Shown here one piece after another: positions 18,491-62,663 of a stretch of DNA of 64,000 bases. Origin of the DNA: Naegleria gruberi (taxonomy: Eukaryota); assembly GCA_000004985.1 (NCBI GenBank), contig GG738874.1. The stretch is one strand, 5' to 3'. Each line of letters opens with the position of its first letter. Position 1 is the first letter of the stretch. A program made the translations under genes and the position numbers. The notes below the pieces were generated by a model that worked only from the letters and a program-made list of their open reading frames with translations, did no database searches and had not been told where the DNA came from.

Positions 18491-20134
18491 ATGCCATTAC
18501 CCAACATCCTTCCTACACCAAATACATCGAGAAAACAGTCTGTACACAATAATAACAACCAAGCACAACAACCATCATCCAAGAATGTCAATAACACTAA
18601 TAATACAACCAGTACAACTCCATCCCATATAACCAACACCAACACCACAACCACCACTGCTACTGCTACTGCTACCACTCAACTAACCAATCAACAAACA
18701 ACAAACATGTCAAAATCACCACCTAATGATTCAAGCCTTCATCCTTCATCAGCAACAACGTCACAAAAGAGAGGAAAAGTTTTGGGAATGATATCAATGT
18801 TTGAAAATTTGAATCCTGACAAGACAAGTAAACCAACAACAACAACAAGTGAGAAAATAGCACTTTCGAATGCTCTTCAAGATGAAGAAAAGAAGAAGAG
18901 ATTTAGAGCTAGAAGTAATTCATTTGATTTAAATTCTCCATCGACAGCATCGGTAGTAACAACCAATTCCACAAATATTACCAACACTGCTAATATTTCT
19001 TCTCAAGTTTCGAATAATCAAAAAACTAATCCACCACCTAATATTTTCCATAATATTTCAAAGAATATCTATAATAATATTAATACACAATTAAATACTA
19101 ATAACACTAATAATACCAATGTGAATAATAATACTACTCATCACAATACAGCAGTTAATAATATTAAAGAAAATGAAGAAGAAGAAAAGAGCCGATTGAC
19201 TAGAACACCATCAATGGTTCAAGGATTAAAAGCTAGATTTGAAAAGTTACAATTTAGTGTATTAGAACAACTTAAAAAAGAAGAGGAATGGATGCAAAAG
19301 AAAAAAGAACGTCAATTAACTGCCAGAAGTCATGGTGATAATCATCAAAGTTCACATAGAAGTGATACTTCATCATGTGAATCCGAAACTAATCATAGAA
19401 ATTCTGTAGAATTAAGTTCTCACAATCAAAAACACAATGATTCCATGCTAATGTATGATCATGATATTATTTCAACCGATGATGAATATTCAGAGGAGGA
19501 TGAACAAGAAATTCATCAAATGATGGAAACAGAGAATGACTATCATCAACATCATTCAATGGATGAAAACAAGAGAAGATCACAAGAGGAAAGAATTCAT
19601 CAACATGTTTTTGATACTCTCATGATTTCACCTCCTCCACAAATTGTTGCAGGAATGGCAGCTCAAAGTAGACAATCATTGTTTTATCATGAACTGTATG
19701 GTGAAACAGCTAGTTCTTCAACACCTTCTCCAATGGATGTTACAGATCCTTCAAGTACTTCTTCAATGAATAATGATGATTGGCTTGAATCTCAAATGAA
19801 TAGACATCAAAGATATAACATTTCAGATTTGGATTTATTGACAGCTTATAGACATAAATCTCAATTATATCAAATGCAAAATCCAGCAAATGTAATGATG
19901 AATCCATTCATTCAAGATTCTCAAGTTGTTTTAGGTAGTGATGCTGAAGAGGAGGATTACGCAGAAGATGGTGGTGAATATCTTTCATCTGACAATGATC
20001 AAACAGATATTGACCCAGAACATAGAAGATCAAGTGTAGATATGATTGGTGGAGTTTTGGATCGACAAAGTGAAGAAGAATTCACAAGTTGGGAAAAACA
20101 AATGGAAGAATTTGGAAAAGCTCTCGTCATTTGA
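18491..20134 (+). CDS. hypothetical low-complexity (N/T/S-rich) protein (547 aa) with acidic C-terminus
   Basis: ATG ORF. Poly-Asn/Thr tracts are typical of AT-rich genomes. The antisense ORF 18466..18678 is an artefact of the poly-T/A codons. Confidence 0.4.
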   Translation: MPLPNILPTPNTSRKQSVHNNNNQAQQPSSKNVNNTNNTTSTTPSHITNTNTTTTTATATATTQLTNQQTTNMSKSPPNDSSLHPSSATTSQKRGKVLGMISMFENLNPDKTSKPTTTTSEKIALSNALQDEEKKKRFRARSNSFDLNSPSTASVVTTNSTNITNTANISSQVSNNQKTNPPPNIFHNISKNIYNNINTQLNTNNTNNTNVNNNTTHHNTAVNNIKENEEEEKSRLTRTPSMVQGLKARFEKLQFSVLEQLKKEEEWMQKKKERQLTARSHGDNHQSSHRSDTSSCESETNHRNSVELSSHNQKHNDSMLMYDHDIISTDDEYSEEDEQEIHQMMETENDYHQHHSMDENKRRSQEERIHQHVFDTLMISPPPQIVAGMAAQSRQSLFYHELYGETASSSTPSPMDVTDPSSTSSMNNDDWLESQMNRHQRYNISDLDLLTAYRHKSQLYQMQNPANVMMNPFIQDSQVVLGSDAEEEDYAEDGGEYLSSDNDQTDIDPEHRRSSVDMIGGVLDRQSEEEFTSWEKQMEEFGKALVI

Positions 20135-20781: not shown

Positions 20782-20902
20782 AATGGCTACGGCCATATCA
20801 CGATGAATGCACCTCATCCCGTCCGATTTGAGAAGTTAAGCATCGTCGAGCCACATCAGTACTGAGGTTGGAGACAACTTGGGAACCTGTGGTGCTGTAG
20901 TC
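20782..20902 (+). rRNA. 5S ribosomal RNA gene (solitary, not inside an rDNA unit within this window)
   Basis: …GGCTACGGCCATATCACGATGAATGCACCTCATCCCGTCCGATTTGAGAAGTTAAGCATCGTCGAGCC…GGGAACCTGTGGTGCTGTAGTC matches the universal 5S landmarks (GGCCATA, CCCGTCCGAT, AGTTAAGC, GGGAA, GGTGCTGTAG). It is followed immediately by a T5 run. Confidence 0.8.
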
Positions 20903-20907
20903 TTTTT
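20903..20907 (+). terminator. Pol III oligo-T terminator of the 5S gene
   Basis: TTTTT lies directly 3' of the 5S end. Confidence 0.45.
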
Positions 20908-21173
20908 GATTTTGCGCCACTTTTTTTACAAACTTACGTTAGACAGTAGGACATTTCTTCAACTGATTCATGATTCTTTGTCTATGAGGATGAACAACAT
21001 GCTCAATTATTACAAAACATGAACCAAGTTTGTGTCCAGAAACAAAAATCAGTTCATGATAGAATTTCTTTTGCAACTTTCTAAAAATATACATCTCCAT
21101 CAAATAAGAATAAAAAACAAAGCAGCTGAAATCAAGAAAAACAATTCAACAAGTAAAAAAAACAACCAACATA

Positions 21174-21635
21174 ATGCAATTATTTGTCAAGACACTCACT
21201 GGAAAAACAATCACTTTGGAAGTTGAATCAAATGATTCAATTGAAAATGTCAAGTCAAAGATTCAAGAAAAGGAAGGAATTTCACCAGATCAACAAAGAC
21301 TCATCTTTGGTGGAAAACAATTGGAAGATGGAAGAACTATTAATGATTACAACATTCAAAAAGATTCAACTCTTCATTTGGTGTTGAGATTAAGAGGAGG
21401 AATGCAACTCTTTGTAAAAACCTTAACTGGAAAAACAATTACTATTGAAATGGAAGCGAATGATACTATTGAGAATATGAAACAAAAGATATTTGATAAG
21501 GAAGGCATTCCTTCAGATCAACAACGATTGATTTATGCAGGAAAACAATTAGAAGATGGAAGAACAATTAGTGATTACAACCTTCAAAAGGATTCTACTG
21601 TGCATTTGGTGTTGAGATTGAGAGGAGGTGGTTAA
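21174..21635 (+). CDS. di-ubiquitin-like protein: two tandem ubiquitin-fold repeats, divergent from canonical ubiquitin, ending RLRGGG
   Basis: Repeat 1 is [76 protein letters not shown], differing at 11 of 76 positions from invariant eukaryotic ubiquitin. Repeat 2 is [76 protein letters not shown], differing at 15 of 76 positions. There is a single extra C-terminal G. Confidence 0.8.
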
Positions 21636-21799: not shown

Positions 21800-23494
21800 A
21801 TGACACAACAGCCACCTCACATTCCACCAGAAATTCTTTCTCTCATAAAAAGTTATTTTTGTCATGGACGTGAATGGGAATTTTTAATGACAAGTTTTAG
21901 ATTTGTTTGCAATGATTGGTATCAAGTTTATTGTCATGATAAGGTGAATCGTATTCGCATAGAATTAACTTCAAATTCTATCACTACATTGGGGAGATCT
22001 AATATTGAAAAATTATGTATGGAGGGCAATAGTTGTTTATTAGGAGTTGATAAAATACAATTTTGCAATGTTGGTACACAAGAATTGCAAGCTATATTGA
22101 ATTGTAATAATTTTACGAATTTAGAGCATTTATTTATTTCTGGGCATTTTGATGTAAAAGTTTTTGAAGAAATTGTAACGAGCGAACCTAATTTATTTAT
22201 TTATAATTTAAAATATTTCTATATATATCATTTGACACCTAACATAGAGGAAATGGTTAGAGTTTTTCAAAAATGTGTTTCAATATCTAATCATCCTTCC
22301 TTTTATTATTTAATATTTATATTAAATACTAATATTATATATTTAAAAAGAGCTGTCGAATTAAATTATTTACCAGCCATTACGAGAATGAAAGAATTAA
22401 CAACGAATGAAAATGAAAAAGTGGAATTGATGATTAAAGGAGCTCAATTGGGTGATTATACTATGCAATTTGATTTGGCTAATTATTATAAAACTAGTGA
22501 ACAACATTCGGAGGCAATACAATGGTTTTTGAAAGCACTAGCTCACAATAACAAAAAAGAAAATCTCACTATTTATAATTATTTAGGAAACTGTTATTTG
22601 GAAGGATCTGGTCTTGAAAAAGATATTAAAAAGGCCCAATATTGGTTTGAAAAAAGTGCACTGAAAGGAAATGCATATGGTCAATTCGGTGTTGCATCCT
22701 GTCATGATGAAAATCATTCTTATACCAAAGCATTTGAATGGTATAAAAAAGCAGCAGACCATGGGGACTCTAATGCTTTATTCAATGTTGCTTATTGTTA
22801 TGAATGGGGTGAGGGTGTTGAAAAGGATCTCTCCAAATCATTTGAATGGTTCCTAAAGTCTGCTGAAAAAGGAGATGCTGAAGCTCAGTATCGTATTGGT
22901 ATGCGTTATACAATGGGAAAAGGAGTTGAAAGAGATTTATATAAGGCATTCAATTGGTATTATAAATCCTCCAAAAACGGATATATAAATTCCATGTTTC
23001 AACTTGGATATATGTATGCTAGTGGTAAAGGAACATCGTTTGATGGAGCTAAATCATTGAAATGGCTAAGTAGGGCAAGTGAAGGTTACGAACATGCTAA
23101 AACAGTTATTGGATTTTTAAATCATTTTGGATTGAATTCAATGAGCAAGGAACTCAATTATGCTGATCAAATGAATATTTCAGAATCAATTAAGAAGAAT
23201 ACAATTGAATCTCTTCGCAAGTGTGGTGCTTGTGATAATATTTGCAAGGGATTTTTCAAATCAACTTTAGATGGCGGATTATCTTTTAATGTTTGTAATG
23301 ATTGTTTAAAATGTATGGATTTGGAACAGATCAAGGAAAAATTTAAATCTGAAATTGGAGACAGAATACTGTATCACACTCATTACCTTGCAAATTTCCT
23401 TCCTCTCATCATTTATTGTAGAGATGAGAATAAGGTTGTTAATTCAAACCTGGAGAGTTTTATTACACAACTGGAAGATTGTGCCAAAGAATAA
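21800..23494 (+). CDS. Sel1-like repeat (SLR/TPR-like) protein with C-terminal Cys-rich zinc-finger-like segment
   Basis: At least six Sel1 repeats are present (…AQYWFEKSALKGNAYGQFGVASCH…AFEWYKKAADHGDSNALFNVAYCYEWGEGVEKDLSKSFEWFLKSAEKGDAEAQYRIGMRYTMGKGVERDLYKAFNWYYKSSKNGYINSMFQLGYMYASGKG…). The C-terminus reads CGACDNIC…CNDCLKC. The true ATG is at 21800; the track start at 21788 is a TTG. Confidence 0.7.
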   Translation: MTQQPPHIPPEILSLIKSYFCHGREWEFLMTSFRFVCNDWYQVYCHDKVNRIRIELTSNSITTLGRSNIEKLCMEGNSCLLGVDKIQFCNVGTQELQAILNCNNFTNLEHLFISGHFDVKVFEEIVTSEPNLFIYNLKYFYIYHLTPNIEEMVRVFQKCVSISNHPSFYYLIFILNTNIIYLKRAVELNYLPAITRMKELTTNENEKVELMIKGAQLGDYTMQFDLANYYKTSEQHSEAIQWFLKALAHNNKKENLTIYNYLGNCYLEGSGLEKDIKKAQYWFEKSALKGNAYGQFGVASCHDENHSYTKAFEWYKKAADHGDSNALFNVAYCYEWGEGVEKDLSKSFEWFLKSAEKGDAEAQYRIGMRYTMGKGVERDLYKAFNWYYKSSKNGYINSMFQLGYMYASGKGTSFDGAKSLKWLSRASEGYEHAKTVIGFLNHFGLNSMSKELNYADQMNISESIKKNTIESLRKCGACDNICKGFFKSTLDGGLSFNVCNDCLKCMDLEQIKEKFKSEIGDRILYHTHYLANFLPLIIYCRDENKVVNSNLESFITQLEDCAKE

Positions 23495-25287: not shown

Positions 25288-25357
25288 TCGGGTGTGGTAT
25301 GTGGTAGCATTCCAGATTGTCACTCTGGCGACCCGGGTTCAATTCCCGGCACTCGAG
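25288..25357 (+). tRNA. tRNA-Asp (anticodon GTC), compact D-arm
   Basis: The acceptor TCGGGTG/CACTCGA pairs with one G·U. The anticodon arm is CCAGA-TTGTCAC-TCTGG (GTC). The T-arm is CCGGG-TTCAATT-CCCGG and the discriminator is G. A 3-bp D-stem ATG/CAT is present, and a T5 run lies 6 nt downstream. No scan was run. Confidence 0.55.
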
Positions 25358-62093: not shown

Positions 62094-62330
62094 ATGCCTC
62101 AACAATTATTTATTAAAACCTTGACCGGAAAGACACTCTCTGTTGTAGTTGAATCACATGATACAGTTGAGAATATGAAATTTCAACTTGAAGAAAATGA
62201 GGGAATTTGCTGGGATGCTCAACGATTAATTTGGTTAGGAAAGGAGTTGGAGCATGGAGTACCGGTTAGGGATATTAATTTTAGCAAAGAAACTACCTTG
62301 CATTTGGTTTTATCTCTGTGGGGTGGTTAA
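62094..62330 (+). CDS. highly divergent ubiquitin-like protein, single ubiquitin-fold domain ending …LSLWGG
   Basis: [78 protein letters not shown] retains the Ub beta1 ([10 protein letters not shown]), DQQRLI-like, GK and HLVL…GG landmarks. The stop follows directly after GG. Confidence 0.65.
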
Positions 62331-62426: not shown

Positions 62427-62663
62427 ATGCCTCACCAATTGTTCATTAAAACTCTGACTGGCAAACTCATCACCATTGCTGTGGATATGAACGATACAGT
62501 GGAAAATGTCAAGTTACAAATTCAAGATCGGGAAGGAATTTATTGGGATCAGCAAAGGTTGATTTATGCTGGAAAGGATATGGAACATGGTACAACAATG
62601 GGACAATACTGTTTTTATAAAGAAATTTGTATTCATTTGGTGTTGAGATTGAGAGGAGGATAA
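62427..62663 (+). CDS. highly divergent ubiquitin-like protein, single ubiquitin-fold domain ending …RLRGG
   Basis: [78 protein letters not shown]. It is a tandem paralog of 62094–62330, 96 nt downstream of it, with the stop right after GG. Confidence 0.65.

Follow-up and report, generated by a model that had tools for sequence, protein, structure and literature searches.

A two-repeat ubiquitin-variant gene of Naegleria gruberi and its probable role as a polyubiquitin-type precursor

Ubiquitin is the textbook example of an unchanging protein, and in a normal polyubiquitin gene every repeat specifies one and the same protein. What, then, is a gene of Naegleria gruberi that joins two unlike ubiquitin repeats head to tail, each altered at more than ten of its 76 positions? 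The gene lies on contig GG738874.1 (assembly GCA_000004985.1), within a stretch of 64,000 nucleotides that was analysed as a whole and is called the window here. We consider it probable that this gene is a polyubiquitin-type precursor yielding two ubiquitin variants, and that it comes from a two-repeat family specific to Naegleria. It comprises the following parts:

21174..21635, plus strand: di-ubiquitin open reading frame (ORF), uninterrupted from ATG to TAA, 153 codons plus stop; assigned to the two-repeat family
21174..21401, plus strand: repeat 1 (r1), 76 codons with an LRLRGG end; the r1-type ubiquitin variant
21402..21629, plus strand: repeat 2 (r2), 76 codons, its Met directly after the GG of r1; the r2-type ubiquitin variant
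21630..21632, plus strand: cap codon Gly153, one extra Gly between the last GG and the stop

The two head-to-tail repeats and the extra Gly after the second GG, as read by a first-pass annotation made from the letters alone, belong to a real, intact and already annotated gene. Its product is identical to GenBank EFC43262.1 / XP_002676006.1 / UniProt D2VIG2, ‘polyubiquitin [Naegleria gruberi]’, encoded on a 401,612-bp scaffold, and the 153-amino-acid protein is matched twice by the Pfam ubiquitin family PF00240 (E = 4.9e-60). The layout is that of a polyubiquitin precursor, with spacerless repeats, an LRLRGG/MQLF junction and the Gly153 cap. Against universal (human) ubiquitin, r1 is changed at 11 of 76 positions (I3L, P19S, S20N, T22S, A28S, D32E, P37S, A46G, L56I, S57N, E64D) and r2 at 14 (I3L, L15I, V17M, P19A, S20N, V26M, A28Q, Q31F, P38S, F45Y, L56I, I61L, E64D, L67V); the earlier count was thus right for r1, and its figure of about 15 for r2 becomes 14. 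Both repeats exceed the three to four substitutions from the universal 76-mer that would count as near-invariance. They differ from each other at 15 residues, with a DNA identity of 79%, and A46G, D32E, S28 and I30 are peculiar to r1 of the window copy.

The placement of the changes favors a precursor of two usable ubiquitins. Both repeats retain M1, all seven lysines (K6, K11, K27, K29, K33, K48 and K63), L8, I36, R42, I44, H68, V70 and the tail from L71 through RLRGG76, so that the proposed retention of K48, K63, the I44 patch and the RLRGG tail holds throughout. The known interaction hot-spots of ubiquitin are all untouched in r1 and r2. M1, the seven lysines, I36, R42, R72, the L8/I44/H68/V70 patch and LRLRGG are, we assume, the features read by the activating (E1), conjugating (E2) and ligating (E3) enzymes and by ubiquitin receptors, and because all of them are kept, r1 and r2 are most likely competent for conjugation. 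Seven of the r2 changes (positions 3, 15, 17, 26, 56, 61 and 67) are conservative swaps at residues that we take to be buried in the ubiquitin core, and the remaining substitutions map to loops and to the exposed side of the helix (19-22, 28-32, 37-39, 45-46, 57 and 64). A46G of r1 and F45Y of r2 are direct neighbors of the I44 patch.

The gene is one of many. A homolog search with the whole protein returned a list filled by three-repeat polyubiquitins, whose summed scores hid two-repeat relatives. In no search did a listed match exceed the query's length by a factor of more than about 1.75, and we therefore shortened the query to 89 amino acids (the tail of r1 plus r2). The shortened query recovered ten N. 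gruberi di-ubiquitin proteins of 152-153 amino acids (the window gene and nine paralogs, whose longest contigs have nine different lengths), two ENA variants from a metagenome in which Naegleria-like contigs occur, two proteins of N. fowleri (155 and 156 amino acids) and one of N. lovaniensis (153 amino acids). The Naegleria proteins outranked all non-Naegleria matches, save for two ENA clusters that stood above the N. lovaniensis protein. A search with the 76 amino acids of r1 added two further, shorter N. gruberi members with internal deletions, giving at least 12 N. gruberi clusters. The family thus numbers at least 12 dispersed paralogs in N. gruberi, two genes in N. fowleri and at least one in N. 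lovaniensis, all of its members being annotated as polyubiquitin or ubiquitin. The suggestion that the window displays an unusual radiation of GG-terminated ubiquitin-like proteins was therefore sound and too modest, since the radiation is larger, genome-wide rather than local, and extends to orthologs in two other species.

Family members share a recognizable signature. I3L is present in every repeat, S19, N20 and E64D each in all repeats but one, and T22S and F45Y in most; the r2 repeats of N. gruberi, N. fowleri and N. lovaniensis all carry I61L and L67V/I. The LRLRGG/MQLF junction is found in every full-length member except P0136, where r1 ends in WRLIGG, and what follows the final GG varies from member to member (G, Y, C, nothing, A, TLCI or VDL). 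Unlike the identical repeats of polyubiquitin genes, r1 and r2 are distinct in all paralogs and in all three species. A neighbor-joining tree places the entire family apart from canonical ubiquitin and clusters the r2 repeats with a bootstrap of only 20-31%, so that a split between r1 and r2 older than speciation within the genus is merely suggestive. These sequence comparisons place the window gene in a multigene family of two-repeat ubiquitin variants that is specific to Naegleria. One further ENA protein, P0022 on a 1.88-Mb contig, consists of three ubiquitin repeats with S19, N20 and A57, the S19/N20 pair being that of Naegleria ubiquitin; it could come from another heterolobosean.

The DNA of four N. 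gruberi-type paralog loci and, from five contigs, of two N. fowleri genes was available for comparison, drawn from an ENA metagenome, one NCBI contig, N. fowleri assemblies (NCBI and ENA) and one Logan contig. Ratios of nonsynonymous to synonymous substitution rates (dN/dS), estimated by the method of Nei and Gojobori (NG86), were 0.07-0.21 for window r1 against the N. gruberi-type paralogs (dS 0.18-0.71) and 0.02-0.06 for window r2 (dS 0.39-0.87). Loci L001 and L002, which encode the same protein, differ only synonymously (dN = 0, dS 0.21-0.28). Between r1 and r2 inside single genes, the comparison that the first-pass annotation had singled out, dN/dS is 0.04-0.14 with dS near saturation; for r2 of N. 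gruberi against N. fowleri dS is saturated (pS > 0.75, where pS is the proportion of synonymous differences) and yields no dN/dS. The copies compared are old duplicates under strong purifying selection at the protein level, neither freshly homogenised nor decaying.

A protein this far from universal ubiquitin could still be unremarkable if ubiquitin itself were altered in the genus. Naegleria fowleri has a ‘polyubiquitin with 3 ub domains’ (PDB 5VIX) that is 96% identical to human tri-ubiquitin according to the structure paper of the Seattle Structural Genomics Center for Infectious Disease (PMC7990177). We reconstructed its sequence from phmmer scores: three queries gave 282.6, 311.3 and 317.0 bits for 5vix_A, a local phmmer returned exactly the search's scores for human di-ubiquitin, and an exhaustive test of all combinations of up to three substitutions per repeat left one solution. 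This solution, human ubiquitin with P19S, S20N and A28S, matches all three scores to 0.1 bit, is 73/76 (96%) identical to the human protein, and predicts an identity of 131/152 (86%) to the window protein, equal to the figure that Foldseek gives for 5VIX. From this sequence window r1 departs at 8 positions and window r2 at 13. S19 and N20 are common to the di-ubiquitin family and the reconstructed N. fowleri ubiquitin, and S28 is common to r1 as well, from which we conclude that the family goes back to Naegleria's own ubiquitin. Naegleria fowleri therefore holds both kinds of gene, a canonical three-repeat polyubiquitin and two divergent di-ubiquitin genes, and the view of the window gene as a diverged paralog derived from polyubiquitin is supported at the level of the genus. 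Two different N. fowleri UniProt entries named ‘Ubiquitin (Fragment)’, Q25558 and Q25559, have been identified by mass spectrometry in immunogenic bands (PMC7350353).

Taken together, we propose that a two-repeat gene arose from the lineage's own ubiquitin and would be translated as a head-to-tail precursor of 153 amino acids. Cleavage after G76 and G152 by ordinary ubiquitin C-terminal hydrolases would take off the Gly153 cap and free two different variants of 76 residues, one r1-type and one r2-type. Both would be charged by the ubiquitin E1 and be usable in chains, and they would most likely join the general conjugation pool beside canonical ubiquitin. The altered helix and loop surfaces (the segments listed above), together with the re-packed core of r2, could bias some binders or deubiquitinases. 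The data directly show the layout of the gene, its place in the family, conservation in three species, purifying selection, the conserved upstream motif and a near-canonical ubiquitin in the genus; that the precursor is cut, that r1 and r2 are charged by E1 and conjugated, and that they have a special function is inferred.

Several observations weigh against this proposal. Literature searches turned up nothing on how the window gene or its family is expressed, or on processing or conjugation of the products. Only in N. fowleri are the variants seen side by side with canonical ubiquitin, and the bootstrap values given above are weak for cross-species orthology of r1 and of r2. Window r1 is the most divergent r1 of N. 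gruberi (A46G is unique to it), and its dN/dS, up to 0.21, is the highest. Some members, on other N. gruberi scaffolds, look damaged: r1 of P0136 ends in LVWRLIGG, and P0270 and P0360 lack internal stretches across the repeat junction. Either these three copies are decaying or their gene models contain false introns, and part of the family may be decaying. Lastly, the maintenance of two repeat types is not explained by a simple role in ubiquitin supply, which leaves room for specialised recognition of r1 and r2.

The boldest use of that room would be a second ‘ubiquitin code’ specific to Naegleria, in which r1 and r2, or an uncleaved linear hetero-di-ubiquitin, come from a co-regulated family of 12 or more genes and are read differently from canonical ubiquitin. 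Such a code would be used, for example, in stress or in amoeba-flagellate differentiation, and it would account for the strong purifying selection that keeps two repeat identities apart throughout the genus. We think it rather unlikely.

That the pair remains joined was also implied by the first-pass annotation, which likened the gene to the fused modifiers ISG15 and FAT10. Here the product would be a distinct, uncleaved di-domain modifier, conjugated through its C-terminal GG as a two-domain tag, or else an encoded linear di-ubiquitin signal. Part of this fits: the window protein consists of two ubiquitin-like beta-grasp domains in one polypeptide within the size range of about 150-165 amino acids, it ends in GG, and ISG15 is among its structural matches. 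Differentiated repeats held by purifying selection in three species, and not homogenised, also fit such a modifier, and the dedicated identities of r1 and r2 would be more easily explained if the pair were the functional unit. However, ISG15 and FAT10 share only about 30% of their residues with ubiquitin and have dedicated E1 enzymes, and their N-terminal domain is not known to carry a cleavable di-Gly end. The repeats of the Naegleria protein are 82-86% identical to ubiquitin, and in place of a non-cleavable linker r1 ends in LRLRGG followed at once by Met, a perfect internal processing site: LRLRGG/M is where polyubiquitin precursors are cut, and the LRLRGG/MQLF junction is a substrate of precursor-processing deubiquitinases. 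The variable or absent C-terminal cap is likewise a trait of polyubiquitin.

Structure prediction tells against a fused modifier too. An AlphaFold2 model built from the family alignment has two beta-grasp domains with a predicted local distance difference test score (pLDDT) of about 90 (mean 88.4), a confidence dip at residues 71-80 (hinge pLDDT about 70) and a predicted template modelling score of 0.52, which together suggest that the domains have no defined packing against each other. Among the PDB matches found with Foldseek, ranks 1-33 were linear di-, tri- and tetra-ubiquitin at 81-86% identity, together with four engineered di-ubiquitin binders (Affilins) at 66-68%; ISG15 did not come up before rank 36, its identity was 27-32%, and its E-values were weaker by about ten orders. 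On the junction, the cap, the domain arrangement and the structural matches alike, the protein is nearer to ubiquitin than to ISG15 or FAT10; the analogy with them is not supported, and an uncleaved two-domain product seems to us very improbable.

Equally little credence is due to the idea that the di-ubiquitin genes encode the ordinary ubiquitin of N. gruberi, with ubiquitin-ribosomal fusions bearing the same substitutions. The many copies and the annotation of all members as polyubiquitin or ubiquitin would suit it, as would the fact that neither homolog searches nor exact look-ups brought up a canonical N. gruberi gene, although such a gene would have escaped the searches: long polyubiquitins crowd the lists, and single-ubiquitin fusions score below the listing threshold (in the r1 search partial 1.5-repeat fragments extended down to 173 bits, above the score attainable by any single-ubiquitin fusion). 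The exact look-ups, made with 1- to 4-mers of the reconstructed Naegleria canonical ubiquitin, found no match in the protein collection. Against it stand the canonical three-repeat polyubiquitin (P19S/S20N/A28S) that N. fowleri keeps alongside its two divergent genes, and the 15 differences between r1 and r2, which cannot both be ‘the’ ubiquitin. In addition, the centrioles of N. gruberi are labeled by antibodies against ubiquitin and against its K48 and K63 linkages (PMC11772885).

The DNA upstream of the gene bears on whether this particular copy is in use. Two elements are conserved there:

21029..21056, plus strand: upstream motif TTTGTGTCCAGAAACAAAAATCAGTTCA, some 120-145 bp ahead of the ATG, conserved in each of the five N. 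gruberi-type loci examined
21080..21089, plus strand: TATA-like element TCTAAAAATA, invariant across five aligned paralog upstream regions
L001 533-550, L002 55-72 and L004 875-892: the upstream motif in paralog loci

About 190 bp before the ATG can be aligned with the nearest paralogs, L001 and L002, and both elements are kept in the five loci although the remaining flank has diverged. The five N. gruberi-type di-ubiquitin loci give the consensus TTTGTG.C..GAAACAAAA....GTTCA for the long motif, which occurs once in the 64-kb window where 0.02 occurrences are expected by chance. Its conservation and its uniqueness in the window point to common regulation, and we presume it to be a promoter element shared by and specific to the family. 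It contains GAAAC...GTTCA with a long spacer; a check of the conserved block by eye showed no convincing heat-shock element (nGAAnnTTCn). The N. fowleri orthologs have an inverted TATTTTTAG instead, at a similar distance upstream.

The window copy might nonetheless be a redundant, drifting duplicate in a birth-and-death family, with little or no function of its own and open only through youth or chance, as its unique r1 changes (A46G, D32E), its dN/dS values, the highest of the set at up to 0.21, and the damage seen in P0136, P0270 and P0360 would allow, but this is distinctly unlikely given an intact ORF with every functional residue kept, a conserved promoter motif and upstream block, and dN/dS far below 1 at a dS of 0.18-0.42 to the nearest available paralogs, which indicates that the copy has long been under constraint.

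Returning to a precursor of two ubiquitin variants, the gene is of a known kind, polyubiquitin-derived genes for ubiquitin variants, and it shares with canonical polyubiquitin (yeast UBI4, human UBB/UBC, N. fowleri 5VIX) the spacerless repeats, LRLRGG followed by Met, a capped end and a ubiquitin fold with all lysines. It departs from these in having only two repeats, which are unlike proteins (15 differences) and lie 11-14 changes from near-invariant ubiquitin, and in being one of at least 12 dispersed copies with no heat-shock element recognised upstream by eye. Baculovirus v-ubi, about 76% identical to ubiquitin, is a diverged and conjugation-competent form that coexists with the canonical ubiquitin of the host. 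The Naegleria genes resemble viral ubiquitins as diverged copies beside canonical ubiquitin and differ from them in being cellular and multicopy; since S19 and N20 are shared with Naegleria's own ubiquitin, there is no sign of a viral origin. Polyubiquitin-like genes of Arabidopsis, UBQ8 and UBQ9, said to have been described by Callis et al. in 1995, reportedly also have substituted repeats and a GG end.

The closest counterpart is human UBBP4, whose polyubiquitin-derived variants, such as UbKEKS, are conjugated to specific targets with different consequences (PMC7066184). In both, a gene derived from polyubiquitin has substituted repeats and keeps the GG end, and as a type such variants stand beside canonical ubiquitin, a coexistence that N. 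fowleri displays. The Naegleria genes differ in forming a genus-wide family with a fixed r1/r2 pair, 11-14 substitutions against four in UbKEKS, a clear signal of purifying selection and a conserved promoter. Nothing was found in the searchable literature on a genus-wide multicopy di-ubiquitin family in Naegleria, on its strong selection or on a fixed heterotypic pair of repeats.

If canonical ubiquitin is indeed accompanied by a dozen or so expressed-looking variant genes, Naegleria would offer a natural experiment on which parts of ubiquitin can vary, with variation mostly in the core and on the helix face, and with receptor patches, lysines and tail untouched. It would also give a protist precedent for the UbKEKS idea of ubiquitin variants as a separate layer of signalling. 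In practical terms, Naegleria ‘polyubiquitin’ annotations and ubiquitin-remnant proteomics, including those of the pathogen N. fowleri, would be merging at least three ubiquitin species. Should the variants merely add to ubiquitin supply, the family would be an ordinary lineage-specific gene-family expansion.

Near the far end of the window are two single ubiquitin-like ORFs, which the first-pass annotation had counted in its radiation:

62094..62330, plus strand: ubiquitin-like ORF of 78 amino acids, MPQQLF... to LSLWGG, PF00240 at 1e-15, 57% identical to ubiquitin
62427..62663, plus strand: ubiquitin-like ORF of 78 amino acids, MPHQLF... to LRLRGG, PF00240 at 1.6e-18, 63% identical to ubiquitin; XP_002676015.1, predicted protein

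The two lie in tandem, 96 bp apart, with proportions of nonsynonymous and synonymous differences of 0.27 and 0.78 (the latter saturated) between them. Both start with MP.QLF and so carry I3L, both have a family-like TVENMK/TVENVK, both have lost K29 and K33, and both have Trp at the position of ubiquitin P38 (ICWD/IYWD). The downstream ORF has Y45 (F45Y), as in the di-ubiquitin family, and the upstream one has R72S and R74W in its tail along with K29Q and K33N and is not, as such, in the annotated proteome. Their DNA aligns with the di-ubiquitin gene at 67-76% identity, and they look like further-diverged offshoots of the family. A representative-library search with the 62-kb ubiquitin-like sequence returned long polyubiquitins only.

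The window, which has a G+C content of 33%, contains these other features around the di-ubiquitin gene:

18491-20134: low-complexity ORF upstream of the di-ubiquitin gene
20785-20903, plus strand: 5S rRNA gene (105 bits in Rfam), 270 bp ahead of the di-ubiquitin ATG
21800-23491, plus strand: downstream neighbor, gene for a Sel1-repeat protein of 564 amino acids (Pfam, 2.9e-42)
25288-25357, plus strand: tRNA-Asp (GTC)

The Sel1-repeat protein read from the ATG at 21800 has no exact match in the protein collection, and the public database therefore probably has another gene model. A 5S gene 99% identical to that of the window also occurs at L001 (1293-1403, minus strand of the ENA contig), about 160 bp downstream of the di-ubiquitin gene and on the opposite strand. 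Four or five N. gruberi-type loci have sufficient flank, and two of these adjoin a 5S rRNA gene; no 5S gene was found within 5 kb of the N. fowleri orthologs, and in N. gruberi the association may be non-random. Linkage of 5S rRNA and ubiquitin genes reportedly occurs in Tetrahymena, but a literature search retrieved no support for it. At L003 (777-3065, minus strand), a gene for a ClpB/Hsp104-type AAA+ chaperone lies tail to tail with the di-ubiquitin paralog P0124 across a gap of 19 bp, a possible stress-gene neighborhood.

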